A DNA stretch of 64,000 nt from a virus (lineage: Duplodnaviria > Caudoviricetes), in IMG/VR virus record IMGVR_UViG_3300005711_000021, positions 1 through 64,000 of that record; one strand, given 5' to 3'. Both the position numbers and the translations under genes were made by a program. Under the pieces are notes generated by a model. That model searched no databases and was not told where the DNA came from. It saw only the letters and a program-made list of their open reading frames with translations. How positions within the stretch are numbered: the stretch's first letter is position 1; every line of letters starts with the position of its first letter. Shown piece after piece: positions 31,693 to 53,300 of this stretch.

Positions 31693-34600
31693 ATGGCTAA
31701 TCAAAACGATGATCGCTTTGATAGAGTTAAAACGGTTGCTAAGGCTGCTTTGGCTGTAGGAGCTGGAGCAGCCTTTCTTTATAGGGGAGGAGGCAACGAG
31801 CTCTTATCAAAAGGGTTAAAACGTGCAACAAATGCTTTAAATGATTCATTTAATAGCGTATCAAAAAATTCTTTAAGGGATCTTAATGGTCAAGCAAAGA
31901 AAGTTTTTAAAGAAGGTATAGAAGAGTTTAAAACTAGCTATAAAGACTATGATGATGTAAAAGCTACTTTAAGACTTGATAATCCAAATAGTTTATTAAA
32001 TGTATTTCAAATTGAGCATTCCCTAAATACAAATCCTAATGGATTTTTACGAAAGATGTATGCACAGGAAGAATTCATTCCTGGTATAAAAAGAGAATTA
32101 CAAAATCGCTTATCAGATATAAATCCTAAAAGAGTTAATAATATAGTTGATAATATCTTAACGCATGTCTCTGATACATTAGAATATACTGAGGAAGCAC
32201 TTCCTGATCATTATAAACTTTCTTCAAAGTTTAAAAAAGCTAATAAAGATGTTTTAAATGAAGAACAAATGTTAGACCTTGAAGAAGTTATTAGAGAAAA
32301 CTTTATTAAAAAACGTGAAGAAACACAGCAGTACATTAATTCACATCAAGACCTATTAGAAAACTTAAAAGCTGAATTACTTGATTATGATGGACTTGCT
32401 ACTAAGTTTGGTACAAAGAACAATCAGAGACAAAATATGATTGAACAAGCATTAGGAGATTCTCAAGTTACATTAAGAGAATTAGTAGAGAATGCAGATC
32501 AAATAGAAAAAACAAATTTGATTTCTGAAGGTAATCAGAACCCAATGGATGTTCTTCAACGTGCAAGAGAGTTAATTGAAAAAGATTCAAGATACGGTGA
32601 TTTATTTGTAGATAAAACATTAAGAATAGATGAAGATGGTAACATTAGAAGTTTTGCAGAAGCTGCTAATATTGGTAAAAAGTTTGAAACACAGTTTCTT
32701 CATACTTTACCAGGTAAGCTATTAAAACCTTTAGAAACTAGAGCATTTAAAAATAGTGCTCCTAACTTTTATTTTTCTAGTAAAGGTAGTGTAGATTATT
32801 TACTTCCTAAGCTATTAGAAGATAGAGAATCTACTATATTAGAGAACTCTTACTTTAGAATTAATGATAGAGGTTTTAGAGTTGCAGGAAATGAATTAAG
32901 ACGTGAATCCAAAATGGATGATTTGTTTTTAACTTCAGGTACATATGGTTCTCATGTTAGGTTATATAAAAATATAACTGGTGACGTAGATTACTCAAGT
33001 GCTCCTAGAAGTTTTATAGCAGAAAAACTAGATATGGGGTCCACTCCTAAATTAAATGCTTTTGAAAATCTTAAGTTAAAATATAAGAAATTTAAAGATC
33101 CACAATGGACTCCTAATCTTATAAAAGATAAAATTAATAATCTATCTGCAGATCAATCAGCTGAAGATTACTTTGAAGACATGAAGGAAATTAATCGAAT
33201 CTTTAAACGTTCCACAACCAAGATGGATAAAACGACAGTTGCTCGATTAAATAACTTTAACTTGGATGAATCAACAAGAGAGATTTTTGATTTATTAAAA
33301 TTGGATGATGAAAATCTATTAAAATCTATTGCTTATATAAATACTGGAGGTACGACACAAAACTTCTTAAATGCAGACGCATCTTCATTAATTAATCGTT
33401 ACCAAAAAGATCCTAAAGCAGCTCGTTCACTTGTATCTATTTCAAAGAAGATAACAAATGTCGGGATGAATATGGAGTATACAAATGCTGATCATTATCC
33501 TGACCTTTTAAGAAAAGAACTTTCTAAAGAAGCATTCCTAAGATATAAACAAGCATTTGGCGGAGATGCTTTAATGAATATGCTTAATAGTGTGCCGTTA
33601 TCTAATGCACAACGTTCTAATGCTAAGAAACTTGCAAGTTGGGGTATTTTTCAAGAAGCAGGTGAAATCTATAATAAAGATATTTCTCCAAAGCAATTAG
33701 AAGAATTAACTAAATCAAAAACAAACTTACAAAGCTTATTTGCTTCAGAACTATCTAATGAATCCAATAAAGATAGATTAATGAAACAAGAGTTCCAAGA
33801 AGTTGTTTCTGCTATGAGTAAATCTGCTTCGACAATGTTTGATGAATCAGATGCACCATTAGAGCATTTAAATAAAATTGAAAAAGCTAATAGACCTGGT
33901 TCTCATATTTATGTAAGAAAAGGTATTTCAGCTTTAGATATTTTAAGTGATTTAAATAGCACAGAGAAATTAAAAGCTTTCGGAAAGCAATTTACTGCAG
34001 GAAGAAAGAATATGGAAGATTTCACGAGTTATTCATTCTATCCTTATTTTGGATTATTCCGTTTAACAGATGCATTACCTCACCTTGCATTCTCTCCAGA
34101 GAATACAGGTAGCGTAGGTGACTTAGCTAAAAATATTATGCTTAAACGTGTTATGCCAGTAATAGGTGCAGGTTATACATTAAGCTATTTAAATTATGAA
34201 TCTAAAAACTTTACAGGTAAAAGTTTAACAGAAGCGGCTATGGTTTCATGGTCTAACTTTGATTTAGGTGTTAGAACATTTATTGATAAAACACCTTTAG
34301 CTGAGTCTTTTAAAGATATGTATTATACAAATGATTTAGTTAATTATTATAATCCAGATCCATATCGTAATGTAGAAGAACAACGTGAATGGTACGAAAA
34401 AGGTGTAACACCTGTTCGTAAAGGACGTTGGTGGGGAATGTCTACATCTGAGTTTAGAGGAGGAAAGATAGAATACTTCGAACCTAACAAACTTAGACAA
34501 GTAAGTACACCGTGGAAAGATATAGGTGTTTATGGTTCTTCAGATGAAAAATGGAAACATAGTATTATTCCTACTTTAAGACATCCATTATCTCCTATTC

Positions 34601-37600
34601 GTTATTTAATGGATCCTTATTGGCTAGAAGAAAAAAATAAATTCTCTAGACCATATCCAATTACTGCTCCACTATTTAGTGAAGGTACACCATGGAGCGG
34701 TATTTTAAATATGACTGTTGGTAACGCTATTAAACCACAAAGAAGTATGCATAACGAAGTATTAGGTAATGACTTTACTGATGTAAGAGATTTAATTCTT
34801 CGTGAGAATGAAAGAATTAGAAAGAAAGATGCATTACAAGATAGATATGTCATGTTAACTGGATCTAGCTCTGCTACTGAAGAAAGACAATTTGATATGT
34901 CGGGCACACCTACCTTACAAGGTAGTCCAGTTATTCGTGGCGATAATATTGATTTATCTAATTTTAATAAACAAAGTGGTGTTTCTGCTCCTTATTCTGT
35001 TACAGCTAATACGCATAGAACAGATAGTAAAATTACAATACTAGATAAACTTGTTATGGCAACAATGGATACAGGAATGATTATGCCACAACTTGAAGAT
35101 ATTAATGCTCAAATTAAATATAAAGCATCTACTCGTGGTATGTCAGAAACGAATTATGCTAAACAATATGATTCATTAATAGCTGCTGACACAATAGATA
35201 TTGTTAGAGATAAAGACATTAGTGCTGAACTTAGAAATACAACTTCTACTAAAGAATACATAAGAGATATTGGTTATTCTGCAAAACAAATTAGTGGTAT
35301 TTATGGGTTCATGTTTGATGAATTAATTCCTGGCAAGAAACAACATATCTTAGCAAATGCATCTTCAATGAGTTCTTTCTCAAGAAGTTTCTGGGATGAA
35401 TCTTTAGGTGGCGTTGGTGGAGGATTCATGGAAATTGCTCGACGTTTCTTCCCTCATGCTAATCATGACAATATAGAAGTTAATCCAATTAGAAATAGTA
35501 TGCCATCATGGATGCCAGAAAGATTTAAACATGGTGATCCATATACTAAAGTTAAAAAAGGTGAAATGAGATTACCAGGTAGAGCTTATGAAGCGATGAA
35601 TCACTTTACACCTAATATTGATTTCTCTGTTCATCCTTATATGACAGGTGCTTCAAAAGAAGAGTTAACACAATACTATATTAACAAAAAAGATATGGAT
35701 GAGTATTTTAACTCACTTCCTATGCAAGAAATTAATTTATCTACTAAAGATGTTAAAAACCTGCAAAAGAATGCAAAAGCTGCACAAGATAATGTTCAAA
35801 AGCTATTAAGATCAGGAAAACTTAATAGCGGAGAATTCTATGATGATTTTCAACGTTTTAAAATATTAGCAGACGTTGCTCCTTATAGTTCAGAATACAA
35901 AAACTATAAATCAATTGTACAAAGTCAATTAACAGATGCGAACAAAAAAGAATACTATGATATTCTAGAACGTGTTAAAAAACAATCTACACAACATGAG
36001 TTTTATAATTATAGATATACTAAAAACTCTTTTGAAGAAATAGAAGGTTATGTAGATACAATCACAAAAGATGGTTTTACGTTAGTTGGAAGTAATAAAA
36101 CATATGCATTAGCAGGTGTTAAAACAACACAAGAAGGTATTAGTACACAACTTGCAGCGGGAGATAAAATCAGAATTAAAGTTGATGCATTAGATGCACA
36201 AGACGATTATTTAAAAGCTGTTGTCTATAGAGATGGTGTTAATATAAATCGTGAAATGATTCGAGATAAAACTGCTGAAAGAAGTTCTGATGGTTCAGCA
36301 ATAGATGCTCATGCAATTGCATCTAATACACAACGTCAGCTTGGAGCAATAGCAGAAACAATTGGACATTTACCTATTCCTATTATTCATAATAGATATA
36401 TGAAGTTAGAAACACCTTTAGAAGCATATAAAAGTGAACAAGTATATGGTACACCATATGCAACATGGTCTCACCCAATACAAGGATATATTCAACCAGC
36501 TTTTAATAAAGCAGTATCAGTTGGACCTATACATGCAGCTTTAGGTGCAACATCATTTGCAGCCAATGTTTTTATAGAAATGTCTAATACAAACTTTACT
36601 ACTTCTCATATGATAAGAGAAGCTGCTGAACTTGCTACAACTATAACTGGTAAAAAAGTAGCTGCAGAAACAGTTGCTAATAATATTACAAAAGCAGTTA
36701 AAATTTCTAATCTGTTAATTACACCAGGAGCAGCAACTGGAGCTACAATAGGTTTTGGTATTAAACTAAGTAATGAACATATAAATAAAGGAGCTATGAT
36801 TGGTTCTGCAATATGGAGTGCTGGATACTTAGTAACAAATGCTAATAACCCATTCTTGGCAGTTGGTGCAGGAGCCTCTATTGGTAAAATAGCAGGAGAC
36901 TTTTTAGAAACATCTGGTGGCAAAAAAGGAGCGGCAGTTGGTGCTGCAATAGGATTTGGTATTTCTTATTTAAGAAACCCTGACTTTAGTATAGAAGGCA
37001 TGAAAGAAAAATGGATACCAAAGAAAACTAAAAAACGTTGGGAAATGGAAGAATACTTTGATAGATTAAATTATATAAAATACAAAGGGTTGTTTGAAAA
37101 AGCATCCGAAAAAGCTCTTAAAAAAGAGGGTGTTAATATTAAACAATTAATACTTGAAATGGAAGAGAAAGAAGCAAAAAATGAAAAAGAAAAGGAAAAA
37201 TTATTAAAGTACAAACAAAAACTTGGTAATAATTATATTAGCAATACCGAATATGGTAAAAGCTTAATGAGACGTATTGACAGCCAGCTTACAGAAACAT
37301 TAGAGTCAAAGATTGTTACGGCGGGAGAGTATACAAAATCAGCAATAGCTTATAAACAAGCTATGGATTCAACAATCTATGGGCTCAAAGAAAATGCGTC
37401 TTGGGCACAAATCCTTAGAGCTTTACCTAAGAATGATAGAGATTTCTTCTTAGAGTTTGCTAAGGTAAAAGATGAAAAAGAACAAAATAAAATTCTTGCA
37501 ACTATTTCTCCTTATAAACGAAAAATACTTCAAAGTATTTGGGGTAGAAAAGTAGATAAACTAGAAAGTAATGAATCTTATTTTAGTTCTTATAAACTAC

Positions 37601-37953
37601 CTAATATGTTCTGGGAAGGTTGGAAGCCTAATGTGGACATGGATCAAATCCAAATGAAGACTATTGAGAATGAAGGTATGCTACTATCTGACTTTGGTTA
37701 TTATGATTCTAATAAATACGAACCTGGCTATAATGAAGTTTCTCCTATTAACAATTATCAACAAGATACTAGTTTACTTTCATTAAAAGCTAATTTATTT
37801 ACATCATTAAATGGTTTAGGATTGACAGGTGTAAATGTAAGCATTGAACCAAGTCAAGTCCCTGGTATTCAGATGATTGCAGATTTTGCTAAGATAACAG
37901 ATTATAGAATCAAGCAAAAAATCAATCAAACGTTTGGAAGAACATATTATTAA
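31693..37953 (+). CDS. tape-measure-like giant tail protein with a degenerate SNase-like domain
   Basis: Follows the chaperones; 2086 aa; Gly/Ala-rich hydrophobic block at ~36500-36970; SNase-like pattern at ~36040-36280. Confidence 0.65.
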   Translation: MANQNDDRFDRVKTVAKAALAVGAGAAFLYRGGGNELLSKGLKRATNALNDSFNSVSKNSLRDLNGQAKKVFKEGIEEFKTSYKDYDDVKATLRLDNPNSLLNVFQIEHSLNTNPNGFLRKMYAQEEFIPGIKRELQNRLSDINPKRVNNIVDNILTHVSDTLEYTEEALPDHYKLSSKFKKANKDVLNEEQMLDLEEVIRENFIKKREETQQYINSHQDLLENLKAELLDYDGLATKFGTKNNQRQNMIEQALGDSQVTLRELVENADQIEKTNLISEGNQNPMDVLQRARELIEKDSRYGDLFVDKTLRIDEDGNIRSFAEAANIGKKFETQFLHTLPGKLLKPLETRAFKNSAPNFYFSSKGSVDYLLPKLLEDRESTILENSYFRINDRGFRVAGNELRRESKMDDLFLTSGTYGSHVRLYKNITGDVDYSSAPRSFIAEKLDMGSTPKLNAFENLKLKYKKFKDPQWTPNLIKDKINNLSADQSAEDYFEDMKEINRIFKRSTTKMDKTTVARLNNFNLDESTREIFDLLKLDDENLLKSIAYINTGGTTQNFLNADASSLINRYQKDPKAARSLVSISKKITNVGMNMEYTNADHYPDLLRKELSKEAFLRYKQAFGGDALMNMLNSVPLSNAQRSNAKKLASWGIFQEAGEIYNKDISPKQLEELTKSKTNLQSLFASELSNESNKDRLMKQEFQEVVSAMSKSASTMFDESDAPLEHLNKIEKANRPGSHIYVRKGISALDILSDLNSTEKLKAFGKQFTAGRKNMEDFTSYSFYPYFGLFRLTDALPHLAFSPENTGSVGDLAKNIMLKRVMPVIGAGYTLSYLNYESKNFTGKSLTEAAMVSWSNFDLGVRTFIDKTPLAESFKDMYYTNDLVNYYNPDPYRNVEEQREWYEKGVTPVRKGRWWGMSTSEFRGGKIEYFEPNKLRQVSTPWKDIGVYGSSDEKWKHSIIPTLRHPLSPIRYLMDPYWLEEKNKFSRPYPITAPLFSEGTPWSGILNMTVGNAIKPQRSMHNEVLGNDFTDVRDLILRENERIRKKDALQDRYVMLTGSSSATEERQFDMSGTPTLQGSPVIRGDNIDLSNFNKQSGVSAPYSVTANTHRTDSKITILDKLVMATMDTGMIMPQLEDINAQIKYKASTRGMSETNYAKQYDSLIAADTIDIVRDKDISAELRNTTSTKEYIRDIGYSAKQISGIYGFMFDELIPGKKQHILANASSMSSFSRSFWDESLGGVGGGFMEIARRFFPHANHDNIEVNPIRNSMPSWMPERFKHGDPYTKVKKGEMRLPGRAYEAMNHFTPNIDFSVHPYMTGASKEELTQYYINKKDMDEYFNSLPMQEINLSTKDVKNLQKNAKAAQDNVQKLLRSGKLNSGEFYDDFQRFKILADVAPYSSEYKNYKSIVQSQLTDANKKEYYDILERVKKQSTQHEFYNYRYTKNSFEEIEGYVDTITKDGFTLVGSNKTYALAGVKTTQEGISTQLAAGDKIRIKVDALDAQDDYLKAVVYRDGVNINREMIRDKTAERSSDGSAIDAHAIASNTQRQLGAIAETIGHLPIPIIHNRYMKLETPLEAYKSEQVYGTPYATWSHPIQGYIQPAFNKAVSVGPIHAALGATSFAANVFIEMSNTNFTTSHMIREAAELATTITGKKVAAETVANNITKAVKISNLLITPGAATGATIGFGIKLSNEHINKGAMIGSAIWSAGYLVTNANNPFLAVGAGASIGKIAGDFLETSGGKKGAAVGAAIGFGISYLRNPDFSIEGMKEKWIPKKTKKRWEMEEYFDRLNYIKYKGLFEKASEKALKKEGVNIKQLILEMEEKEAKNEKEKEKLLKYKQKLGNNYISNTEYGKSLMRRIDSQLTETLESKIVTAGEYTKSAIAYKQAMDSTIYGLKENASWAQILRALPKNDRDFFLEFAKVKDEKEQNKILATISPYKRKILQSIWGRKVDKLESNESYFSSYKLPNMFWEGWKPNVDMDQIQMKTIENEGMLLSDFGYYDSNKYEPGYNEVSPINNYQQDTSLLSLKANLFTSLNGLGLTGVNVSIEPSQVPGIQMIADFAKITDYRIKQKINQTFGRTYY

Positions 37954-38683: not shown

Positions 38684-41600
38684 GTGAAATCCATGAAGAA
38701 GAATAAACGTTATACATATAGCGACGAAGTTAGAAGTCGTCTTTTATTACAAAGAGACAAAGAAATTGACCAAGTCGCAAAAAATATATTAGTAAAAAAA
38801 TATGAAGATGAATTAAAAAAAGAATATCCTGATGCCAATGCAAAAGAATTAAAAAAGAAGATTGTTGATAAATATAAAAAAGAATATTATGACATACGTA
38901 GTAACATTATTGCTCCTTTGTATCATGATAAAGTTTCTGACATTATTAAGATTGGTAAAGAGTCCGTAATTATTAGTAATACCAAAAATTATAATCAAGA
39001 AACAACTTATGCAGAAAATACTAAACTTCCAGATATATATAAGAAGATAAGTATTAAATCTGATTTATTTGATGTTATGGAGAAGTATGGTACTTCGTAC
39101 AATAATACATCTAAAACACAAACAGGTTCTGCACTTATTTCAAATGTTATTGAATTTGATAAACTTAATTATTCTTATACAACTGTAAAAGCATCTCAAT
39201 CATTAGAACATGCAAATAAAGCTTATGAGTTCTTTAAAAAGTCTAAGAAATTTATGGCTTATGATTATGAAACAATGGGTGGTACAGATGAATTCGGATA
39301 TAAACGAGTAGATGCTTTAACAGAGTTTGCTTATAGTGTATTTGATAAAGAAAGTGGAAAATCCAAAACAGTTAGTACAATTGTTGGTTTAGATAAAAAA
39401 CAAGAAACACGTTTTAGAGAGCTTATTAAAAATGTAAATAGGGATGGCATTTCTTCTAATGAACAAGATGTCATCTATCGTCGTATCGGTTTGTATGGTC
39501 ATAAAAATACAAGCTTTATTAAAGATGCAGATGGAATGTATAAAGTTGAGAAGATGGCTGATCTTGAATATGGTCATAGATTCTCAGATGCAGATTTAGA
39601 AAGAGGTTTTAAACGCCTTAGAGATATTTATGAAGATCAAGCTAAGTTAGGTAAAACGACTGGTGGTCTTTATAAATGGCAAGAACGATATGCTGAAATG
39701 ATCGGTCTTATGAATAATAAAGATATGGCAGTACTAGACTACAATGGTGTTATTGCCGATAGACCTTGGCAAAATAAATTCTTAGCTACCATGGATTTAA
39801 ATGAATCTCAAAGACAAGAGTTTATGAAAATCGCTGGCATTAATGATATGTTCTTAGATACAACTAGTGAACGTTTTTATGATGTGCGTGTACATACTCG
39901 TTATGCTGCAAATAATGTAGGTTCAGAAGCTTACTATTCAACTGATGAAGCTAAAAAAAGATTAAAAGGGAACACACCATTCTCACAAGAAGGTATTACA
40001 AGAACACTCTTTGCAGAAGAATATGAAAAAGCAGGTGGTGGTGCTCATACTGCAGGATTCGATACACAACTCCTTGCAAAACTAGCAACAGATAAAAATG
40101 GTTTTGGAATGAATGGAGAAACATTTGTAGACCGTATTTATAGAGATGCAAACCTTAGTAAATCAGCTATTAATAGCTCTGTTAGAACTGGGAATTTAGA
40201 TTTGTTAATGGCAAATCAATCTGTTCAATTCTTTGGAGGCGGTAATGGTCCATTAAGTTATGTTTATGATCCAGTTAGTAAAAACTATAGAACAGCTAAT
40301 CAATATTCACTTGGAGAAACTGTATCTAAAGAATTTACTAAAGAAAATCCAATTAAACGTGGACGATTATATACATTAGATTTTGCTGGTCAAGTTAATA
40401 TGACAGATGAATGGGTAAAAAACATTGATGGTATCCATGATGAATATGCTCAGAAATCTTTATATGCTATTAAACTTAATCCATTCTTTGATGAAAAAGT
40501 AGCAGGTGCTCACCAGGGATTACGTGGTCATTCTGTAATGTTCTTTAATTCAAAAGAACAAATGGAAGCTACATTATCTAATATGACAAAGATAGGTGAA
40601 AGAGATTCTGCAACCAATCCTTTTAGATTTTTATCTGGAAAAGCAGGAGAAGAAGTAAGAGAAATGTTTACAACACATAACGTTGTAAATGGAAAAATTA
40701 TAAAAGGTGAATCTCCAGTATCTATTAATGAAATTATTACTAAAGCAACTTATGCTGATGTAAATGATACTGCTGCCAGAATGATTCGTGAAGACAGTTT
40801 CTCTAAAGCGATGAACTTCTCTCAATTCTATGATAAACTTAATGAATTTAATGAAGCTCCTGTAACAAAAAAAGAAGCAAATAATATTTTACTTCAAATC
40901 ATGCAATCTAAAGATAGAAAAATTTCTAAACGAGTTGCATCAGGTAAAGTACTAGAACTTTCATATGCTGATATTCAAGAAACATTAGGTTATTCATTAG
41001 ATAATGGAAAAACGCATAATCTGATTTCTAATACATTAAATAATCAAATGACAGCATTTGAATATATGTCTAGTCAGAATGAAGTATTCAAAGCTATTAA
41101 AAATCATTTCTATGAACAAGGTTATGATAGCGACCAATTCCAATTTAAGTTTGAAAACATCTTAAATCAATTAACAGAACAAGAGATTAATTCTATTACC
41201 AAAAATCCTCGTAAATCAAAAGAGTTCTGGAATAATGGAAAGCCAACTGAATTATTTGGAAAGGACTTAAATTATTTTAACTTTGATGTAAGAGATTTCT
41301 TTAGGGAGAGAATAGAGTCTCCTATACAAGCTTATAGCAAACCAATAATTGATGAAGATATATTAAGAATTGATTTGGGCCCAGGTAAAGAATATAACTT
41401 TGTTAATAACTTACTTCGTCGTACAAGTTATACAACTGAAATGAATGCTGCTCAAAAAAATAATGAAGGTATTACTCAACTTCGTAATTTCGTAAAGAAT
41501 GTTCAAGCAGATAAAAGCTATGGTGATTTATTTTCTCAATTCGATGATGCTAAGATTGCCTCTTATCAATCATCTGATATGTTTGCTAGTTCTATCATAC

Positions 41601-44600
41601 AAGAACTTAGAGAATATAGAAAAGCAAATCCTACTGCAGGTTATTTAGCAGAAGCTTATACTCAAGACGCAACAATTAGAAATAAAATATTAGATAGTGC
41701 TGCTAGTGATCCAAATCTTTATAAACGTATTGCAGAGATAGATGCTAATTCACCTACTTATGTTGTAGCAAAAGGTGATCAACAGCTATTACGTTCACAT
41801 GCTCAAAACATTGTAAATAATATCTTAGTAGATGATATCGATCCTTTTGATTATGCAAAAGAATATGGTTTTTCAAATAATCAAGCTAAACATATGAAGT
41901 ATTTATATAATCAAGCAAAAGAAGAATATACTGATTTCATGACAACATTCTTAGATGCTTTTACTTCAGGGAAAAATACATCATTTACTTATAATGCTAA
42001 AGATAAAACATTCGCTTTAATGAATGGTTCACAAAAAGCTTTAGATATAGACTTACCTAAATTAAAAGCTATGGATGGGACATTCTTTATAGATATGGGT
42101 TCTACTAAAGTAGCACTTCATGCAAAGATAGATGCACAGCGTGCTATTAAAAAAGGTACTTATGCAGGCAGTAAAGATGTGAATGTTATTTCTACTTTAG
42201 GAGCAGCTTTTAATGATACAACTAGTATGCTTAATTTCTACAAGGTTGCTAAAAAAGGAGATAGCAACAATGATATTTTAAGACGTACACAAAGCGTCCT
42301 TCAAAATGTCAAATCAGGTATTCTTTCAGGTTCAAGTGTTGACTTTAATGACATCTTAGATATTCAAACACCTTTTCGTGTAGACTATAAAGATATCATG
42401 GGACTTGCTCCTTTATTAAAACAAAATAAATTATTAGAAGGTAGACAATGGAGAGATCCAGAGTTTTTATCTAAATTAAGACTTGATAAAACATTTGAAA
42501 CTTCTGATGATGCTTATCGTGAATTATTCCAGAAAAACATTCCTGAGATGTTAAGAGTTATCGCTGAACAAAAAGGTGGATTCAATGATGAAACCTGGAT
42601 GGGTATGATAGCTAAGAACATGTCTTTCTTAGGAAAAGAAACACAAATAGCTGACTTTGTTGGTATGATTGATGGTATCGCTCATAGAGCTGGTATTGAA
42701 ATGTATAACAACATGCGTCCAGTTATTAACCAAACTCGTGCTGTGCTTTATCGTACAGAAGATTGGGAGAAAGCTTTAGCATCAGATGAATTTAAAGGAC
42801 GTAATGTAGGTTTAAAGCCAGTTACTTCAAGCCTCTCTTCTCAACAAATTTTAAATAGAGAGTTAACTGGTGTAGGAAGAACATCTGTTGAGTTACAAGT
42901 TGGTAAATTAAATATTTCAGAAATTCATTACCGAGGAGCTATTACTGATTACTATAACAAAAAAGGTAATTTATCTCAAAGAGACCAAACAGTATTTAAT
43001 AAATTAAAGTCTGTCAACTTAACAGAACAAGAACAAGTAGTAGACCCTAGAGTTGCTAGTAAGTTCTTTAATCGTATGCAAGAACAAAAGATTAGTTCTA
43101 GAAAACAATTAAGTTTCTATATGAATATTAATGAACAAACAATAGATGCTGTTAATGAAATAAAAAGTATGAGGCCTAGATTTGAAATTGATTCAGAAAC
43201 AGGTTTACTTCAATTTAAATATGGAAAAGGCGTTGAAAAGAAACGTCATGATAAATTATTAGACATTGAAGGTTATAATAAAAGCTATACTCAAATGTCT
43301 AAAATAACTGGTAAGTTTAATCAAGGTTATTTTTCTAAGACAGATGGCATGCTTATTAGAGAAGAAGAAATTAATAAACTTATCTCTGGCTTTAAAACAG
43401 CAGAAGAAGCAACTAAATTCTTAGATCAAACTTTTGATTCAGCTTGGTATGTAAAACCAAATGACATGGTAACTTATAAGAAAATGCTTAATGGCTTCGT
43501 TGAAAAAGGTATGGGCGATGTTCTTGCATTTGGATTAGGTGAAAGCGATGATAAAGTTAAACAATATTTATCTGCTATTAATAAAGGTTATATTGGAAGA
43601 GTTGCAACAGATGATTTTATCAATGAAGAGATACTAAGTAAGTTTGATTCTAATATTGGTAGAAAAGTTGGTATCAAATCTAAAGAAGAATTAAAAGACT
43701 TAATCTATAAAGAACGTTATGAAGCATTCGATACGTTAAGAGATATCTTTGGTAAAGAACATGATTTCTCATTATTAGCTAACCATTCACAAGGTAGCCA
43801 TAAAAATACACAACTAGGCTTTGAAGAATTAGTTGGGACAATGAAATATCATTTAACCAAAAATGGTATGACAGAAGATGATGCTATGTCTAAGGTCTTT
43901 AGTGACTTAACAGCTGCTGAACATAAGTTTATAAATATCGATGGTGTAAGTTTAAAAGATGGTGTTATTCAATTTCCTGACCATTTAAAAGGTGGACAAG
44001 ATTACTATGATAATGCAGCCTTAGAAAAGATACTTGATAAAGATGAATATAAAGCCATGAAAGATGGGTTACGAGTAAATTACAACGGAAAAGAAGTAGG
44101 TAGCTTTGTAATGACTGGTCTTTCAGAAGCAAGAGATTCACAATGGATGAGTGGTAAAACAGATCCTGAATTTATTGAAAGCATTGCTGATTTACAAGAA
44201 AAAGCAGCTCTTGCTACAGGTAAAGAAAAAGAAAAACTTGAAGCCAAAATACAAAGTTATCTTTCAGCTTTAGATTGGAATACAAAAGGACAAAAGATTA
44301 CAGATAGAGAAATTCAAATGTTAGAATTACAAAGATATGACCAAAATCTTGTAGACCTTATGCAATCTAAGTTAGATAATAATACTTTTGAATCTGTAAT
44401 GGGACATGTTTTACAAAGAGATGAAAAAGGTGCATTTGTTAAACAAGGTGATAAATATCTTATTGATGAATCTGTTCAAGGTAGAGCAATGTTATCTGAA
44501 ATGACAGATACATATCGTGAAAAGTATTTACGTGGGCAAGGTCAAACATTATTTGATATTACAGATAAAAAAATAGATGACATATTAAAAGCTAATTATT

Positions 44601-47278
44601 CTAACGAAAGCGTAAGAAGTGGTATTAAAAGCTTAGTTAGCAGTCAAGGTGAATTATCAAAAGATACTGCAGAACATTTATATTCTATGACTCGTGGTAT
44701 AAAAGCTGTTCGATTTAATGGAGCAGGTTCTTATAGTTTAGAACAAATGCAAGAAGAAGGATTTGAAATAAAGAAAGCAAATCAAATCTTTAAATCATTT
44801 GATCAAGGTAAATGGTCTTTAGAACATCCAGATAGTATATTCAATAAGAGCTTAATATTAGACTTTGGTGAAGAATTTAAATTAGATTCAGAACGCTATT
44901 TAGCACTTCCTTATGCCCCTTCAAAATTAACAGGAGATACAGTAGTTAGAGAAAACTTCCAAAAGAAATTGAATTCTGTTTTAACTTCTTTGAATAAGAT
45001 TGAAAACTTTAATAGAGGTGTTAAACAACCTAATGATACAAAAGAAAAACTTATGGCTAGTTTTAGAAAATATCGTACAGAGTTGCAACAAGAAATAGAA
45101 CTATTTTCTGCCACAGGTAAGAATGGAAATATGGGAGACTTTAGTGTCCGCTTAGACCAGTCTTTTGTAGGTAAATCTTCAGGTGTTGTTGCACTTAATC
45201 CTTTAGAGATTGAAGCTTTTAGTAAAAAAGAAGGAGCAAATGTCCATGAGCTTCTTGGTACATCTTATAGAAAAGCTTTAATTAGTTTAGGCGATGAAGA
45301 TAAAGCTCTAGAGTTTATGAACTATGAACCATTATCTCGTTCTAAGTTTATGGGTAAATCTATCCTTAATCATTATTCAGATGGTTTATATTTAAATGCT
45401 TCTTATGGTGGAGAAGACATCTTTAAAGAGATGGGAATCTTAAGTGAGAACTATCTAAAAAAATCTGGCTTTGATTCTATGGATGCTCTTAAAAAGCATT
45501 TAGAAACAGAAGGTATTATGGTTAATGCAATTCGTACACCAACTATCAAAATGGATTCTACTGCTCCTGCTATGATGTATTTAGATACTTCATTAAAAGG
45601 TAAAAGAGTTAAGACATTATTAGAACCTTCTCTTGCTAGAACAGAGGACTACGATGGGGACCAACCTATCTTCTCTATTTTTAAAAACATAAATGGTGAA
45701 GATTCATTAATAGCAATGAGAAATGGTCATGGTGATGATCTAGTATGGAAAGATATACAAGCTAACATGGTAAGTAGAGGAGTTGGTTCTCATCAATACT
45801 TCCACGATAAGACATATAAGACATTAATTGAAGATGCTCAAAAGTCATTCCAAAATGGTAGTTTCATTTCTTTAACTGGAGATACTGCATTAGATGAAAG
45901 AATATACGCTGAGTTCAACATTGCTCCTACATCAGAAGCTATTATGAAAAATTCAGAAGCTCTAGATGAATTACAAAGCATTTATAAATCAAAACATGGG
46001 GCAGCTTTTAATTTAACAAATGCTGATGATATTGGTAGAGTTTCTGATATTATTGAATCTATGGAAGGCAATACAAGAGAACGTTATTTAAAAGCAGCAG
46101 CTTTTGATCAAGCCTTTGCAAAAACAGAAACAGGTTCTATTGCAAAAGTACGTAAAACAGCTATCGGTGAAGTCAATAACCCATTAGCAAGATTAAGAAG
46201 AACTGCTGACTTAGCACTTCCTAAATTTGGACCAGATTCAGAAAAACGTATGATTCTTCAAAAAGCTTTTGAAGATATTGAGCAAGAGGTTATCTCTGCT
46301 AAAAAAGGAAGTCTTAGAGACTACTGGGATAAAACATCTACATTCAAATCTGCATTAAGTAATTTAACATCTGGAGACACTCAACGCAAAATTGCGGGCA
46401 GAAGAGAAATGACAGAATGGTTAAATTTAAACATGGCTGGAGACTTTGAAAAAAGTGCAAGTCATTTAGCAGCTATTAATTATATGCCTAATACATCTAA
46501 AGAAGATGCTTTTAATTATATTCGTGATACATTTGTAGAAACAATTGGAAGTTTTGATTCTTTAGAATTGCAAAGATTAAAACAATATGATACTCTAGGA
46601 AGTAGTATTAAATCTTATGGATTAATGAATAATGCAGGAGATTTATTAAAATATGCTCCTAATGATAAGACCACTCTTAAAAATATCGGAGTTAATGCAG
46701 CTGTTGAAGCAGGTTTACTAGATACAACTTTAATAGATACAAATCATATTCAAGGTGTAACAGCAATTAAAATGCATGGCGTTTCTCAAGATGTTTTAAA
46801 AGATGGAAATAACGAAATCAGAGAGCAAGTTACAAGTGGTCTTAAAAAAGGCATGTCAGAAATGGCACAATCCATGACAAAGGGGATGTCAGAATTAGCT
46901 GGTTCTAAATTAGGACTAGTATCTGCAGGATTAGCAGCAGCTTATATGATAACAGGTTTTATTGGTAACAATGCATCTCACCCTGCAGATATGCAAGCTG
47001 CACAACAAATGACACAACCTAGTGGCGGTGGGTTACCACAACTAAGTGATTACGGAGATTCTTATCAAAATAGTATGCCTTCTAATAGTGGATATGTTAT
47101 TAATGTTAGAGGAAATGGTTCGCCACAAACATTAGCTAGAGCACAACAAAGCATTTCTCAAACTATGGGTAATACAATTGATGCGAACATAAACGTAAGA
47201 ATGAATATTATGGAATCTAACGGTAATATAAACGATAGATATCTTGATCAATTACTTGTTAACGCTATCGGAAGATAG
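38684..47278 (+). CDS. giant protein: N-terminal DEDDh 3'-5' exonuclease plus putative single-chain two-barrel RNA polymerase (candidate virion RNAP)
   Basis: Exonuclease motifs AYDYET, DYNGVIAD and AHTAGFD; RNAP-like motifs KMLNGFVEKG, AIRTPT and EDYDGDQ. Confidence 0.65.
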   Translation: MKSMKKNKRYTYSDEVRSRLLLQRDKEIDQVAKNILVKKYEDELKKEYPDANAKELKKKIVDKYKKEYYDIRSNIIAPLYHDKVSDIIKIGKESVIISNTKNYNQETTYAENTKLPDIYKKISIKSDLFDVMEKYGTSYNNTSKTQTGSALISNVIEFDKLNYSYTTVKASQSLEHANKAYEFFKKSKKFMAYDYETMGGTDEFGYKRVDALTEFAYSVFDKESGKSKTVSTIVGLDKKQETRFRELIKNVNRDGISSNEQDVIYRRIGLYGHKNTSFIKDADGMYKVEKMADLEYGHRFSDADLERGFKRLRDIYEDQAKLGKTTGGLYKWQERYAEMIGLMNNKDMAVLDYNGVIADRPWQNKFLATMDLNESQRQEFMKIAGINDMFLDTTSERFYDVRVHTRYAANNVGSEAYYSTDEAKKRLKGNTPFSQEGITRTLFAEEYEKAGGGAHTAGFDTQLLAKLATDKNGFGMNGETFVDRIYRDANLSKSAINSSVRTGNLDLLMANQSVQFFGGGNGPLSYVYDPVSKNYRTANQYSLGETVSKEFTKENPIKRGRLYTLDFAGQVNMTDEWVKNIDGIHDEYAQKSLYAIKLNPFFDEKVAGAHQGLRGHSVMFFNSKEQMEATLSNMTKIGERDSATNPFRFLSGKAGEEVREMFTTHNVVNGKIIKGESPVSINEIITKATYADVNDTAARMIREDSFSKAMNFSQFYDKLNEFNEAPVTKKEANNILLQIMQSKDRKISKRVASGKVLELSYADIQETLGYSLDNGKTHNLISNTLNNQMTAFEYMSSQNEVFKAIKNHFYEQGYDSDQFQFKFENILNQLTEQEINSITKNPRKSKEFWNNGKPTELFGKDLNYFNFDVRDFFRERIESPIQAYSKPIIDEDILRIDLGPGKEYNFVNNLLRRTSYTTEMNAAQKNNEGITQLRNFVKNVQADKSYGDLFSQFDDAKIASYQSSDMFASSIIQELREYRKANPTAGYLAEAYTQDATIRNKILDSAASDPNLYKRIAEIDANSPTYVVAKGDQQLLRSHAQNIVNNILVDDIDPFDYAKEYGFSNNQAKHMKYLYNQAKEEYTDFMTTFLDAFTSGKNTSFTYNAKDKTFALMNGSQKALDIDLPKLKAMDGTFFIDMGSTKVALHAKIDAQRAIKKGTYAGSKDVNVISTLGAAFNDTTSMLNFYKVAKKGDSNNDILRRTQSVLQNVKSGILSGSSVDFNDILDIQTPFRVDYKDIMGLAPLLKQNKLLEGRQWRDPEFLSKLRLDKTFETSDDAYRELFQKNIPEMLRVIAEQKGGFNDETWMGMIAKNMSFLGKETQIADFVGMIDGIAHRAGIEMYNNMRPVINQTRAVLYRTEDWEKALASDEFKGRNVGLKPVTSSLSSQQILNRELTGVGRTSVELQVGKLNISEIHYRGAITDYYNKKGNLSQRDQTVFNKLKSVNLTEQEQVVDPRVASKFFNRMQEQKISSRKQLSFYMNINEQTIDAVNEIKSMRPRFEIDSETGLLQFKYGKGVEKKRHDKLLDIEGYNKSYTQMSKITGKFNQGYFSKTDGMLIREEEINKLISGFKTAEEATKFLDQTFDSAWYVKPNDMVTYKKMLNGFVEKGMGDVLAFGLGESDDKVKQYLSAINKGYIGRVATDDFINEEILSKFDSNIGRKVGIKSKEELKDLIYKERYEAFDTLRDIFGKEHDFSLLANHSQGSHKNTQLGFEELVGTMKYHLTKNGMTEDDAMSKVFSDLTAAEHKFINIDGVSLKDGVIQFPDHLKGGQDYYDNAALEKILDKDEYKAMKDGLRVNYNGKEVGSFVMTGLSEARDSQWMSGKTDPEFIESIADLQEKAALATGKEKEKLEAKIQSYLSALDWNTKGQKITDREIQMLELQRYDQNLVDLMQSKLDNNTFESVMGHVLQRDEKGAFVKQGDKYLIDESVQGRAMLSEMTDTYREKYLRGQGQTLFDITDKKIDDILKANYSNESVRSGIKSLVSSQGELSKDTAEHLYSMTRGIKAVRFNGAGSYSLEQMQEEGFEIKKANQIFKSFDQGKWSLEHPDSIFNKSLILDFGEEFKLDSERYLALPYAPSKLTGDTVVRENFQKKLNSVLTSLNKIENFNRGVKQPNDTKEKLMASFRKYRTELQQEIELFSATGKNGNMGDFSVRLDQSFVGKSSGVVALNPLEIEAFSKKEGANVHELLGTSYRKALISLGDEDKALEFMNYEPLSRSKFMGKSILNHYSDGLYLNASYGGEDIFKEMGILSENYLKKSGFDSMDALKKHLETEGIMVNAIRTPTIKMDSTAPAMMYLDTSLKGKRVKTLLEPSLARTEDYDGDQPIFSIFKNINGEDSLIAMRNGHGDDLVWKDIQANMVSRGVGSHQYFHDKTYKTLIEDAQKSFQNGSFISLTGDTALDERIYAEFNIAPTSEAIMKNSEALDELQSIYKSKHGAAFNLTNADDIGRVSDIIESMEGNTRERYLKAAAFDQAFAKTETGSIAKVRKTAIGEVNNPLARLRRTADLALPKFGPDSEKRMILQKAFEDIEQEVISAKKGSLRDYWDKTSTFKSALSNLTSGDTQRKIAGRREMTEWLNLNMAGDFEKSASHLAAINYMPNTSKEDAFNYIRDTFVETIGSFDSLELQRLKQYDTLGSSIKSYGLMNNAGDLLKYAPNDKTTLKNIGVNAAVEAGLLDTTLIDTNHIQGVTAIKMHGVSQDVLKDGNNEIREQVTSGLKKGMSEMAQSMTKGMSELAGSKLGLVSAGLAAAYMITGFIGNNASHPADMQAAQQMTQPSGGGLPQLSDYGDSYQNSMPSNSGYVINVRGNGSPQTLARAQQSISQTMGNTIDANINVRMNIMESNGNINDRYLDQLLVNAIGR

Positions 47279-47313: not shown

Positions 47314-50300
47314 ATGAGTCAATCTACTAATAATGCTTCAAAAATACTTGACGAGCTTTTAATTACATCTGAAGGTTACGTCCTAAAAGATGATGATTTT
47401 AGTTTACCTACAGATATGGATTTCTCTTCAGAAAGTTTTAGTGTAGACTTATACAACAAGTTAAATAATGGTGAATTAGATTTTCCATTATATTTAGAAA
47501 CACCATTTTCAACAAAACCAGGTTATTATGAAGATGAACGTGTTTTTATTGCAACAGCTGTTCCATATATCAAAAAAGCTATTAAAAAACATATACCTGA
47601 TAACATAAGAGCTTTAAATACAGCTGAGTCACATGAACAACTAAACTCTGATGACGGCGATACTGTTTACTTTATGAATGAAACTTTATTTTCAGGTGAA
47701 TCTGCTTTTATATTAGGTGATAGAGCATATGAAAACTTAGATGAGTTTTTAAATATTCAATCTAACAAAAACGGTAAGTTTGGTGTCCGTTTCCTAGGTA
47801 TAGATGCACCCGAAATTCCTCACTACATATCTACGCCAATGACATCTGGAGATATTCATAAATTTAAATTCGGAAAGATTAAAAACAAAAGTAACTTTGT
47901 TTTTTCTAAGTTTAAAATATCTGGAGAGTCTATTCTTGATAGAAATGATAATGATACAATAAGTTTTTTCTATGACTCAGAAAATGATACATATTATGAA
48001 ATAATTGAAGAACATTTTGCTCCAGGTTATTTAGATTTATCGGATGAAGAAAAGAAAAAAATAGAAAGTCTAAATGGCACAATCGGAAAAATCGTATATG
48101 TAGATGAGTCTAAAAAGACAACTGTTAAAAAAGGACTTGAAGCTGCAGAAACAGTTAGAGATATGGTTGGTAGAGCAGAAGAAATTTGTTTAATGTTAGA
48201 CCAACAAAGTTTAAATAGACAAACTAACCATTATGAATCACCTTATAATAATGATTACTACTCTTATAACTTCTCACATGCTTTAACACCATGGAATACT
48301 ATTAAAAACTATTGGAATAAATTTTTTAGTGATGCCCGTTATAAATATATGGGATTTAATGCATGGGGACAAGATAATAATAAACGTATGCTTGGAACTA
48401 TTTATTTAAAAGTAGTAGTACCTGAATTAGGTGAAGAAGCTGTTTGGATTAACTTATCTAAATATGTTCTTCAAAAGTTTCCTAAGGATGTAGAAGCATT
48501 ACCAGATTATACATCAGATCCAAAACAAAACTTACATAATGGTTTTTGTTCAAGTGCTTTTAAATTATGGACATATAACTTTACAGACCAAGTAATTCTT
48601 GATGCATTCACAACTTATACAGATGATTTTGTTGAAGAAAGAAATAAAATCTTTGAAGAACTTGCTGGAATGAGTATGAATGATATAAAAGAATATACGA
48701 TGATTTTAGGAGATAATGTTTTTATCGTGCCTCCAACATCTATTCGTTGTATGACTCAAACTCAAGCAGAAAGAGTACAGCTTTTACGTTCAAGAGGTTC
48801 TGCTACAAAGCAAGCTCCTATTTCTGAAAAGATGATAGAACTAAAACTTTATTTTAATAATGAAGATGGTATTAATGGTACACCATATGATGTAACACTC
48901 CCTAATGGACATAAAATAACTTATTGGATGAATGGATTAAGAAGTTTAATAGCTCAATTTAAATTAACACCGTTCTTACCTATTGAAAATAATTATATCA
49001 ATCAAGTGCTTAATGTATATGCAGTTACTTTAATGGATTTACAAGTATCTACAATGCCAGGTTTTCCTAAATGTTTACAAGTTACATTAACACTTCAAGA
49101 ATTTAATTATCATATTTATATGCCCGAATTACCTCTTCCTGAATTATTAAAAGAAGAAGATTTGTATATTAATATGTTTGCTAGATGTATTCATTATCCA
49201 GTAATGCGTTGGTACTATCAACGACTTCTTCAAAAAGGTGAAAAAGTTAAAAACTTAGCTTTTAATAGTAAAGAATATATTGCAGAAACATTCGGTTCTA
49301 ATACGGCACTTGTTCCAATGGATTTTAAAGATTCAGCAATTGAATTTTACTTACCAGATAAAAAACTTTTAGATAGACGTTTACAAGTTTTCCTTGCAAG
49401 AGAATCTAAACCTTTACGTTCTTCTTATGAATTAACAGATGACGGCAAAGAACTTATTAGACAAATGGCCCCTATCTATAATGATTTACTTATAAATAAA
49501 ATAAATAAAGACACAATTGCTTTAGGTAAAAAAATAACAGAAGTTTGTACAGTTGATTATTCAGGTGTTAAAGAATATTATCCTCATACTTTATTTGATA
49601 TTAAAACGAATTCTGCTGTTCTTGAAAATAATGATGTAGGTCAGTTTTACAAATACAAATATCAATTAGTCGGATCAGATAACAATATGTTATTTGGCTC
49701 ATCATTTGCAAATTACACATCAGAAACAGAAAACAGATTCTTTAAATCTGATTTTGGGATTGAACGTGTACAACCACCTATTGGAAATTTTGTAAGAGCT
49801 ATTGAATATGACAATATCCCAATTGATGATTATGATGGTAGAGCAAAAACAACAGGCTCTCCTTATGTATCAAAACATATATCTGACTACTTTAATAGCT
49901 TTACAGGTTTATCTAAATTTGGTGGTTACGAAGTAAAAGAAAGTATTGAAACATATGAAAATGGTAAAGAAGGACGATTTATTTTTGATGTATATGTTGC
50001 AATGCCACAAATACTTAAATCTCAAGTAGAAAGAGAAGAGTTTTTAAAAAATGTTATTACTCAATTAAAAGTAGATAATAATTCGGATATATTTGATTAT
50101 AATTCAGCAGGAGCATTATGTATTAAAATTCGATTTGCAATTCCTACACTTGTTTATAAAGTTAATCTTTATTCAAAAGAGGAACATATTGTTCATGTTG
50201 CAAATGGCGATATTTCATTAGACACATATAGTAATGGATTTGCATTTTTAGGATTTTGTGATCAAAACGTAAAAACTATTTATTTAGAAGATGGCACAAA

Positions 50301-53300
50301 AGAATACTTAGACTATACTGGAAATGCAATGGAAGATATGTCTGAAGATGCTATTGAAGCAAATAAATACAACTACCTAGAATCAGAAAACAGTATTGAT
50401 TTCAAGAAATATGATTTCGGCGAAGATATTAATATTCAATCTATCAGCTGTTCTTATTCAAATAGTTTAGCAAGAGTAAGACTAAATGCTATGGATGGTT
50501 ATGCACATCAATTCTGTGGCGGACAAGATTCTGTTATAGAGATTTCTATTACAACAAAGAATGAATCAGCAGCTTCATTACTTCAAAACCTACCTAGAAT
50601 TGCAGCAAGTTATGTTATTGATTATAAAGAAATTCTTCCATGTTGGCCACTTCGTATAAAGTCAGAGATTACAAAGCTATTTGGTATTAATGAAGTATTA
50701 GTTGAAGCAGTAGATTTATCAACTGTACCAAACTATCCAGGACTATATAGTATCACATTGAGAATGGTATCTGTAGATAGAAGTACTCGTAATAGAGAGA
50801 CACTTAAAAAACTTGAAGAAATTAATAATGCAGGTACTCTTGCAAATGATGCTAAAGGTGAATATATGCAAAATACATTCTTTGATTTAAATCGTGTATT
50901 AGGCAAAGCAGAAATTTATCCTGATTTAGAATTACCATTAGTAGATGAACTTGAATATGCTGGTTATAAGTTAACAAAATATTATAATCCAGAACAAAGT
51001 ACAAGAAAATATTTAGACCCAGATTTCTATTTTGTTTATGCTCATATTCTTACTCATGAGCTATTAAAATCAGCAATACAAAAAGGATTAGATGAACAAA
51101 AAGTAGAACTTGGTTTTGAACTTAATGATAAATTTGGAAGTTCATATTTAGTTAAAGAAAACACAGATACAGAATCCAATTTACCAATGTCTGCAGAACC
51201 CACAAATGATGTTGCAAAAGATATACAACAACAAGCAGAAGCTGCTTATTCAACTAAATATATAGATTCTGTTGCAGATACAATGAATAGAAGAGGATGG
51301 TTGGCTCTTGAAGAGAAATATAAATTATCTTCTAAATTACCTCAAACACTTGCAGGAATGAAAACACCAGTTTGGTCTATTACAGATAAGCTTGTCTTTC
51401 CATTAAGAGAAGAACAATACAAGTTAATTTATAATGGTAATGAAGAACAAGATAATATTTATCACCAACAAATTAAATCCCATGAAGATAAAATGTATTC
51501 TATTATAGATAATGAATTAAACTATCCAATTAACATGAAAGCAATCGGTATGGAAGAATACACTAAGAAAAATTTTCCTGGTGATCATTTAAGAGATAGC
51601 GAATCATTATTAAAGTGGGCAGAAAAACGTATTGGTAAATTCTCTAAACAATATGCTTATAATCGTTCATTCATTAATGAGTTGGCACATGATAATTTAA
51701 ATGATCCAACTGCTGTTAAAGTAAATGGATTAAAAGATATTCTTCTTGCTTTTGCAGATAGTGCTACAGGCTATGCATTTTGTGAAACTACAAAAGTCCT
51801 TGCAATAAATTTAGCTTCAACAAAAGATGATAAATATTCTGCTGTAAACTGGAAGCTTAAAATGTTTAATAATTATGGTGGACAAGTTTATAATGGAAAT
51901 ACTGTTAATTGGGATGTGCTAGAACCTTATTGTAAAACAAGAGGTAAGGACAGAGAGTTTGCAATGAATCTAGATGATGCGATTGAGAATGGTACATCAT
52001 TTGGTATTTATCAAATTCAAATGTATCCAAAGGCTGCTATTATTGATTTAATGTCAAGTGAATATGAAAAACAAAAAGTAATGCAAAGTAAAGTAGAGTT
52101 TGTTTTCTTAGATCCTTATTATAGATCGTTACAATTAGATGATCCTACAAGTGATGAATTAAAAGCTTATAAAATGAAATTATTACTTGACCCAGCATAT
52201 TGTGCGTATGCTTATATTAGAAATCTAATGGTATGGTATAAATATCTTCTAAAAGAAGAAATTGCTTTATCTATGTATGAAACCATTAAAAATGAAGCTG
52301 CTAGTAAAATAAAAGTTTCAATAGGAGATATCAATTCTTATGGTTACGGCAGCTCGGGAGAAACAATTAATAATTTCAAAGAAGATAAATTTGAAAAAGC
52401 TACTAATCAAACGTATAAAGAAGTTTTTACTCAACATGCAAAAGTATTCGCTATTGCCTATGCAGTCTTATACGATACTAAAAATAATAACCATCTAGCA
52501 ACGGAAACAGCTCTTGAAGAAGAAGGCGTTCCAAATGAGTTATTTAGTTATGTAGATAAATACAAAAACAAGACTGAAAAAGATTTAAAAGCTTTAGAAG
52601 TAGATATTAGAAAAGACTTAAAAAAGGAAAAAGAAAACAAAGAACACTCAGATGAAATCAAAGAAGCTTATATTAATAACTATAAACTTATGCTTTCTGC
52701 ATTAGGCTATGATGTAGATAATGATACCCATACAGAAGTTACATACGACAATCTTTTAAGATATGGTGTTGCTATTGTAGGTCAATATGAAACACAAAAA
52801 GAAGAATCTCGTATCAATAATCAAACTTTTAAAGAAATAATTGAACAACTTACTTCTGATAAAAAAGATATTATAAAAGGTAAATTAATAGGTCTTTCTT
52901 TATTACTTCTTAAAAATGGTGGCAGTGTTTTATCTGCAATGAGAAGAAGAGAAACTTATGAGCTAGATAGTTTAATGTTGAGTTTACCAATGCCAACAAT
53001 TAATGGCGAAAACAATGATTTAAGAAAATATGTTTTAGCATTAGATGGACGTGGCGTATTAAAATTAGAATATGTAGGTTCTTCTACTCAATCTGCAGAA
53101 TCGTTGGTTAAATTTGCAGCTTCAACTAGAATTAACATTAAAAAATGTAATAACATTCGAGAGTATCTAAAAGACTCATTCTTAGATATGATTAAATACG
53201 ATAAGCGAGGAAGAATGTTAAGAGCTTTCCCTACTTATTACATGTTATTTATAGATGAAGGACGTGATATTGGTTTATGGAAACTACATGATAACTTTTA

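Follow-up and report, generated by a model that had tools for sequence, protein, structure and literature searches.

Within the first 64 kb of the IMG/VR virus record IMGVR_UViG_3300005711_000021, which is 117,989 bp long and estimated to be ~50% complete, lies a giant gene whose product is the subject of this study (Table 1); the whole 64,000-nucleotide stretch is called the window here, and coordinates beyond it are positions in the full record. The open reading frame (ORF) at 38684–47278 (+), which an earlier annotation made from the letters alone (the original prediction) had read as a diverged single-chain RNA polymerase (RNAP) fused to a DEDDh exonuclease, is a real open frame of 2,864 codons when read from GTG. 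This GTG, at 38684, lies inside a Shine-Dalgarno-like GAGGTG, with ATG 38693 5 nt further on; because of this context, and because the database copy of the protein (P0002) is 2,861 amino acids long and its homologues begin with MKKNKR or MRKNKR, translation most likely starts at ATG 38693. The residue numbers of the original prediction would therefore exceed those of the real protein by 3, and we have kept them throughout, counting from GTG 38684. All of its motifs were found where it had placed them, including VRLDQS (residues 2155–2160) and AIRTPT (residues 2282–2287, containing R2284).

The polymerase part of the protein was modelled with AlphaFold2. A first model, built from seven sequences, had a predicted local distance difference test (pLDDT) score of 51 and was excluded from searches; the model of residues 1430–2580 built from a 43-row alignment reached a pLDDT of 87.1 and a predicted template modelling score (pTM) of 0.85. 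Searching the PDB with this core model using Foldseek returned 186 matches at E ≤ 1e-3, and among the best 50 of these 186 rows (E about 1e-5, probability about 1.0), 49 were beta' chains of RNAPs or beta'-like subunits of phages, among them those of AR9 and the phiKZ non-virion RNAP (nvRNAP), the sole exception being an integrative (cross-linking/deep-learning) model of RpoA-RpoC. The structural matches also include Pol I, Pol II, archaeal A', plant Pol IV, Mycobacterium tuberculosis beta' and plastid RNAP, while QDE-1, P74-26 gp62 and P23-45 gp96 align with model residues 15–1148, 15–1129 and 15–912, respectively. Neither 6VR4 (phi14:2 gp66) nor the DNA polymerase PolD appears among the structural matches listed, which is an absence only and no evidence of difference. 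Matches in BFVD comprised a 'minor tail protein' (E 6e-7), a protein of Acinetobacter phage ME3 (E 1.4e-5), and RNAP subunits of phages and giant viruses.

The double-psi beta-barrels (DPBBs) that the original prediction had called for are present in this confident model, with isolated DPBB domains superposing on model residues 730–941, the second, Asp-bearing barrel, at a root-mean-square deviation of 2.2–2.6 Å. For the first, Lys-bearing barrel, the basis is the strand pattern together with the spanning alignments to single-chain RNAPs, which begin at model residue 15–18: a cluster of beta-strands occupies model residues 70–184, and K171 and K179 (K1600 and K1608 of the protein) stand in adjacent strands, 169–174 and 178–184. 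We infer that these lysines are the equivalents of beta K1065 and K1073 and face the Asp triad. In the second barrel, R2284-T-P2286 is followed after 35 residues by D2322 (38 residues from R2284 to D2322), an arrangement that satisfies [RK]xPx{20,100}DxDxD, the filter used for calling viral RNAPs (Chaban et al., PMC10770324, Supplementary Data 4). The two barrels are joined by a connector of ~500 residues, which is clamp-like and can be aligned to the N-terminal portion of beta' (model 585–957). Long helices follow at model residues 924–959, a pair that on the model is a candidate bridge helix, and at 988–1009, and alignments to beta' and Rpb1 reach model residues 1112–1151, spanning the region of the beta' bridge helix and trigger loop. 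The resulting order of Lys barrel, connector, Asp barrel and long helices is the one published for single-subunit two-barrel RNAPs.

The catalytic positions of this model are held almost without exception in a large family. A word-index search gave six relatives of 2,856–2,981 amino acids at 25–69% identity, and a profile of residues 1447–2497, run against 1.84 billion cluster representatives, gave 216 clusters (defined at 50% identity) at E ≤ 0.001, 145 of them at E ≤ 1e-30 and nearly all 2,650–3,300 amino acids long. Conservation was counted in a MAFFT alignment of 130 full-length members, each standing for one 50%-identity cluster, which average about 20% identity and are mostly 17–29% identical to the protein studied here. 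R2284, P2286, D2324 and D2326 are kept in all 130, K1600, K1608 and D2322 in 129, E1607 in 127, and G2325 in 123, so that both lysines and the DxDGD loop, on whose conservation the original prediction had staked its case, are retained. Over the whole protein, 32 positions are at least 93% conserved, and 15 of these are motif residues named in that prediction. Its comparison of VRLDQS with the conserved KRVDYS of beta' did not survive, being ruled out by variability across the same members (V in 36/130, R in 66, D in 31, S in 62).

A word-index search for shorter fragments gave no match, and an additional scan of IMG/VR added no loci beyond those known. One relative, IMGVR_UViG_3300045988_160394 (locus L016, 1962–5666), is interrupted in frame by a stop at codon 851 of its matching polymerase-region stretch; a frameshift, a sequencing error and another genetic code are possible causes, and its sequence was excluded from the alignments. 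On the strength of the model and of the invariant catalytic residues, residues ~1430–2580 are predicted to fold as a single-chain two-barrel nucleotide polymerase with a full invariant catalytic set, as the original prediction had proposed for this giant protein of the tail module.

The protein's N-terminal portion had been credited with a complete DnaQ-like set, and the family bears this out: the five catalytic residues D194, E196, D359, H455 and D460 are present in 130/130 members and N354 in 125/130. The Exo I, II and III motifs occur in DEDDh order within the conserved contexts F/Y-D-x-E-T-x-G-G, Y-N-G-x3-D-x-P and A-H-x-A-x2-D-x3-L, with an insert of ~160 residues separating Exo I from Exo II. 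When a seven-sequence profile of the domain was compared with the PDB, the best match was the proofreading domain of a family-B DNA polymerase (E 0.008), aligned exactly on Exo I (FDIET) and Exo II (YNGDSFDFPY), with weaker matches to DEDDh exonucleases at Exo III; for a 48-sequence full-length profile, it was a 195-amino-acid exonuclease (E 0.004), the alignment running from Exo II through Exo III. Similarly, a 130-sequence hidden Markov model (HMM) placed Exo I on D12/E14 and Exo III on H162/D167 of Escherichia coli DnaQ (9.7 bits), and with this HMM the real DnaQ ranked first of 502 sequences, ahead of the reversed sequence and 500 shuffled ones used as decoys. A weak pointer to phage exonucleases of the RNase_T type came from Atlas (score 0.91). 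Pfam RNase_T matched neither the protein nor the exonuclease domains, our exonuclease profile (A3) found no match in E. coli K-12, and among seven exonuclease domains compared with Pfam and PHROGs a single member matched phrog_403, 'DNA polymerase exonuclease subunit', at E 0.046. From the motifs and these profile comparisons, we think it quite likely that residues ~150–520 adopt a DnaQ-like fold.

Between the two predicted enzymes lies a middle region for which sequence searches of Pfam, PHROGs and the PDB returned no match; its C-terminal end may be part of an N-terminal domain of the polymerase.

Table 1 Features of the giant gene, its predicted domains and its neighbours in the window (residues counted from GTG 38684).
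Feature	Residues	Coordinates	Strand	Basis or remark
Giant gene		38693..47278	+	exonuclease, middle region, two-barrel RNAP core, hydrophobic segment and conserved C-terminal module in one chain (predicted)
DnaQ-like DEDDh 3'-5' exonuclease domain (predicted)	~150-520	39131..40243	+	motifs and weak profile matches
Exo I, MAYDYET	D194/E196	39254-39274	+	motif
Exo II, YNGVIAD	N354/D359	39740-39760	+	motif
Exo III, HTAGFD	H455/D460	40046-40063	+	motif
Middle region	~521-1429	40244..42970	+	moderately conserved; near-invariant N1342-x2-R1345-P1346
Single-chain two-barrel RNA polymerase core (predicted)	1430-2580	42971..46423	+	modelled region
First barrel (beta-like, DPBB-B; predicted)	~1499-1619	43178..43540	+	K1600-x7-K1608 in KMLNGFVEKG, residues 1600-1609 (43481-43510); E1607, G1619
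Second barrel (beta'-like, DPBB-A; predicted)	~2154-2334	45143..45685	+	R2284-T-P2286 (45527-45544); Mg-binding loop D2322-Y-D-G-D2326 (45647-45661)
Helical region past second barrel	~2353-2580	45740..46423	+	secondary structure of the model; conserved G2495, K2540
Single Gly/Ala-rich hydrophobic segment, LGLVSAGLAAAYMITGFIG	2742-2761	46907..46966	+	Kyte-Doolittle scan; conserved in the family
C-terminal module, GYVINVxG ... VNIxMNI ... DR		47066..47275	+	most conserved stretch of the family
Portal		12285-14420		upstream of the giant gene
Protease				upstream of the giant gene
Major capsid protein		17557-18777		upstream of the giant gene
Tail sheath		22997..25873	+	phrog_16991, 9.6e-62
Upstream giant gene, 2,086 aa, gp145 homologue		31693..37953	+	blastp 3e-62, 1e-44, 1e-34, three collinear pieces
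Downstream giant gene, 3,152 aa, baseplate hub gp147 homologue		47314..56772	+	blastp 2e-64; phrog_20474, 4.7e-191
M23 peptidase		57171-58403	+	PF01551 3.6e-25
gp25-like sheath initiator		58420-58938	+	PF10934 5.8e-4 (below cut-off)
Baseplate_J		58935-59750	+	PF04865 1.2e-4

The gene had been described as lying among tail genes, and the annotation of the window agrees, with the sheath upstream and baseplate genes downstream. Because a tail sheath gene is present, the phage, which is uncultured, has a contractile tail, and the same gene rules out a crAss-like phage. The giant gene is flanked by homologues of gp145 and gp147 of Bacillus phage 0305phi8-36, and therefore occupies the slot of gp146 in that phage; matches to the downstream giant found by tblastn were annotated as 'baseplate hub protein' or 'endolysin' of Moorella, Bacillus and Acinetobacter jumbo phages. 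The three giant genes keep the same order in relatives on IMG/VR contigs of 205–241 kb, and their products gave no blastp matches with one another, which rules them out as paralogues. Mass spectrometry identified both gp145 and gp146 in virions (GenBank note); gp146 is annotated in GenBank as 'hypothetical tape measure protein', a name given by length, and only its last 60 residues align with relatives (Hardies et al.). The protein studied here shows traits of a tape measure in its gene position, hydrophobic segment and conserved C-terminus; at least 1,150 of its residues are predicted to be globular, and two more giant genes stand alongside.

Upstream of the giant genes, the ORFs at 26673–29450 and 29444–30412 both match phrog_9206 ('major head protein'; 2.1e-40 and 4.5e-6). 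Their place between the sheath/tube and the giant genes makes tail-tube paralogues or tail proteins, as with gp141 and gp142 of 0305phi8-36, a likelier identity than head proteins.

Beyond the polymerase core, the protein carries two further elements. Its hydrophobic segment is a candidate for insertion into a membrane, and the ~70 residues at the C-terminus, a candidate docking or assembly signal, show the highest conservation of the whole protein (G2803, Y2804 and N2807 at least 93% conserved). Both recur in the slot equivalent. When sub-HMMs of the family were searched against the 174 ORFs of three phage loci, the best ORF for the C-terminal HMM was gp146, at its C-terminus (E 0.025), where a hydrophobic segment followed by GY-x-V-N-V-K-G can be seen by eye, and the best for the exonuclease HMM was again gp146, at residues ~1198–1503 (E 1.6e-6). 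The DEDDh-like exonuclease domain that gp146 (locus L029, 9080–16693) seems to have, at residues ~1198–1700, contains YLDIETTG, GQNVADAD and HLARAD (DIET, N-x3-D, H-x4-D).

We consider it probable that the giant protein is a tail-associated, 'polyvalent' virion protein of a 0305phi8-36-like jumbo myovirus, standing in the tape-measure slot, containing two predicted enzymes and serving as an early transcriptase. The protein would be made late, together with the tail genes, and built into the tail through its C-terminal module, beside the hub protein. On contraction of the sheath it would be expelled ahead of or with the DNA, and its Gly/Ala-rich segment would insert in the membrane, leaving the polymerase core at the cytoplasmic end of the entry channel, where it could transcribe the first-entering phage genes without the host RNA polymerase. 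Transcription of entering genes by an injected RNAP is the model proposed for P23-45 gp96 (PMC10770324). Later genes would probably be read by the host RNA polymerase, redirected by the sigma-70-like protein that the phage encodes.

Several points weigh against this account. Sequence similarity to known RNAPs went undetected throughout: the whole protein matched nothing in Pfam (E ≤ 1) or PHROGs, and tblastn with it against 50,697 phage records gave no match; the core region gave only noise against the PDB by phmmer and with a seven-sequence profile in hmmsearch (TPPP, de novo proteins); hhalign of the family profile with phi14:2 gp66 gave no match; and a profile (A2) found none in the genomes of ME3 and MaMV-DC. 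The database matches of the exonuclease are marginal (E 0.004–0.008), and hhalign of its profile with the single DnaQ sequence scored no better than with shuffled sequences. The juxtaposition of the lysines with the Asp triad is inferred, as are polymerase activity, template, product (DNA or RNA), packaging and ejection. Because the slot equivalent gp146 has no DxDxD motif, its presence in virions bears on our protein only through the common position and the C-terminal and exonuclease modules that both possess. A folded core of ~130 kDa would not fit the lumen of the tail tube, which leaves its location in the particle and its passage unexplained. Finally, only about half of the genome is covered, so that a second, non-virion polymerase can be neither shown nor excluded; no second protein with R-x-P and DxDGD was seen in the half available.

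How the exonuclease would serve an injected transcriptase is the weakest part of our account. Most likely, its substrates at entry are free 3' ends, whether DNA or RNA, with the processing of genome ends or template, the removal of host or defence nucleic acids, and the trimming of transcripts as candidate roles, and we think that it is ejected as an independent activity. That it serves the polymerase as a dedicated proofreader is less likely, given that gp146 carries an exonuclease-like domain and no DxDxD. The same observation argues against the two active sites working on one 3' end, whether in what would be the first two-barrel RNAP with DEDDh editing or 3'-end processing, or in an injected, proofreading DNA polymerase of the PolD kind; such coupling is compatible with the conservation of both active sites in 130/130 members in constant order, and we regard it as improbable.

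The alternatives to an injected transcriptase concern both the slot and the enzyme. Given that the slot is that of gp146, itself called a tape measure by length and devoid of DxDxD, in a phage with a separate RdRP-like (RNA-dependent RNA polymerase-like) enzyme, orf99 (Hardies et al.), the giant protein might be mainly a tape measure or structural protein of the tail lumen, its polymerase module being a DNA-pulling motor or a relic unused in gene expression. A relic is excluded by the retention of every catalytic residue in 129–130 of 130 members at about 20% identity; the core is predicted to be globular rather than an extended ruler; and a DNA-pulling role would require transcription all the same and can coexist with the early-transcriptase reading. 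We judge a mainly structural role unlikely. Quite unlikely, too, is a QDE-1-like enzyme, RNA-dependent or primed from 3' ends, that would make double-stranded or antisense RNA, for example against host or defence RNAs, and would not be an early transcriptase. Least probable of all is a PolD-like two-barrel DNA polymerase or gap-filler, injected with its proofreading exonuclease to repair, fill in or prime the genome: a DEDDh exonuclease in the same chain is a hallmark of DNA polymerases and of no known RNA polymerase, DNA polymerases of two-barrel type exist, as PolD shows, and the exonuclease profile found a DNA polymerase proofreading domain first, but no PolD chain is among the best 50 of the 186 structural matches, the strong ones all being RNA polymerases, R-x-P followed by DxDGD is an RNAP/RdRP signature, the phage has its own split DnaE, primase and DnaB, over 1,000 residues separate the exonuclease from the polymerase, and an exonuclease-like domain recurs, in gp146, apart from any DxDxD.

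Besides these replication proteins, the record encodes a DHH/RecJ-like protein and a sigma-70 region 4 protein. The latter, of 302 amino acids (record 93068–93973; PF08281 1.4e-7, PF04545 1.9e-5), probably redirects the host RNA polymerase for part of the phage programme. DnaE is split into adjacent ORFs at record positions 96844–98247 and 98494–100638, separated by a gap of ~250 bp, the first comprising PHP and the start of the NTPase domain and the second the remainder, fingers and HHH; the DHH/DHHA1 (RecJ-like) gene lies directly upstream. A 407-amino-acid ORF at record positions 85058–86278, which has no Pfam match, contains K-K-P...DFDID and thus fits [RK]xP-x{20,100}-DxDxD, DFDID being the form of the motif in crAss gp66; it could be a chance match or a small second polymerase-like protein.

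To our knowledge, virion-delivered two-barrel RNAPs have been shown in only two phage groups, crAss-like podoviruses and P23-45-like siphoviruses. If our interpretation is true, contractile-tailed jumbo phages would be a third setting for injected two-barrel RNAPs, and 'tape measure' or 'hypothetical' giants of the 0305phi8-36, ME3 and Ma-LMM01-like phage groups may hide enzymes. It would raise a mechanical question, namely how a folded polymerase of ~130 kDa leaves through a tail tube, and an enzymological one, the purpose of a 3'-5' exonuclease on an injected transcriptase. The family itself, with 216 clusters at 50% identity, is large and without a name, and the literature searched holds no paper describing it.

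The original prediction had not recognised this architecture as one already described, and the literature that we searched likewise described neither the family nor a fusion of exonuclease and RNAP, nor any contractile tail with such an enzyme; in the jumbo-phage survey of Iyer et al., group 3 phages are credited only with YonO-like free-standing enzymes. Compared with multisubunit beta/beta' RNAPs and the split enzymes of phiKZ and AR9, which have four or five subunits, the enzyme described here is a single chain fused to an exonuclease and a tail module, gives no Pfam match, and shows no flap (sandwich-barrel hybrid motif, SBHM) insert that we could see. The QDE-1/YonO/PF05183 clade consists of free-standing enzymes of 800–1,400 amino acids that have no exonuclease and no link to virions or tails; PF05183 does not match our protein, nor any other part of the 118-kb record at E ≤ 10, and the relation of the core to this clade is at fold level only.

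Among tail-slot proteins, 0305phi8-36 gp146 resembles the protein in its slot, its hydrophobic segment, its C-terminal GY-x-V/I-N-V module and its exonuclease-like domain, and differs from it in lacking both DxDxD and the R-x-P signature; the likeness is a weak one, at E 1.6e-6 and 0.025 in a database of 174 ORFs. In Acinetobacter phage vB_AbaM_ME3, a 1,603-amino-acid 'hypothetical protein', ME3_36 (locus L030, 9726–14537), is encoded between the gp145-like and hub genes. It contains REP...DHDQD at residues 1174–1221 and was the best of the 174 ORFs for the Asp-barrel HMM (E 0.006), and it is probably the ME3 protein matched in BFVD. ME3_36 is possibly a shorter tail-slot two-barrel polymerase that lacks the exonuclease, and since ME3 is cultured, the apparent presence of this shorter version would make the idea testable at the bench.

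The comparison drawn in the original prediction was with crAss-like phages. There, phi14:2 gp66 (PDB 6VR4; bioRxiv 10.1101/2020.03.07.982082) is a protein of 2,180 amino acids that is packaged in the virion and contains a two-barrel RNAP for the transcription of early genes, and like our protein it is a giant with an extremely diverged RNAP, encoded in a block of giant structural genes. It belongs, however, to a podovirus, has DFDID as its motif and lacks an exonuclease, whereas the protein described here has DYDGD and comes from a contractile-tailed jumbo phage, so that the comparison is an analogy only. The nearest precedent, and the closest known case, is instead P23-45 gp96 (also in P74-26, G20c and TSP4), in which the tail tape measure is fused to a virion two-barrel RNAP (Chaban et al. 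2024, PMC10770324; PDB 8H2M/8H2N); fusions of virion RNAPs to large proteins have been noted in the literature as a theme. The two differ in several respects: P23-45 is a siphovirus with an 800-nm non-contractile tail, whereas a sheath is present in the phage studied here; gp96 has its polymerase at the N-terminus, without a clamp ('flat'), whereas that of the giant protein is predicted at residues 1430–2580 with a connector of ~500 residues; and gp96 carries a metallopeptidase and no exonuclease, in place of the DEDDh set. Sequence homology between the two proteins is undetectable.

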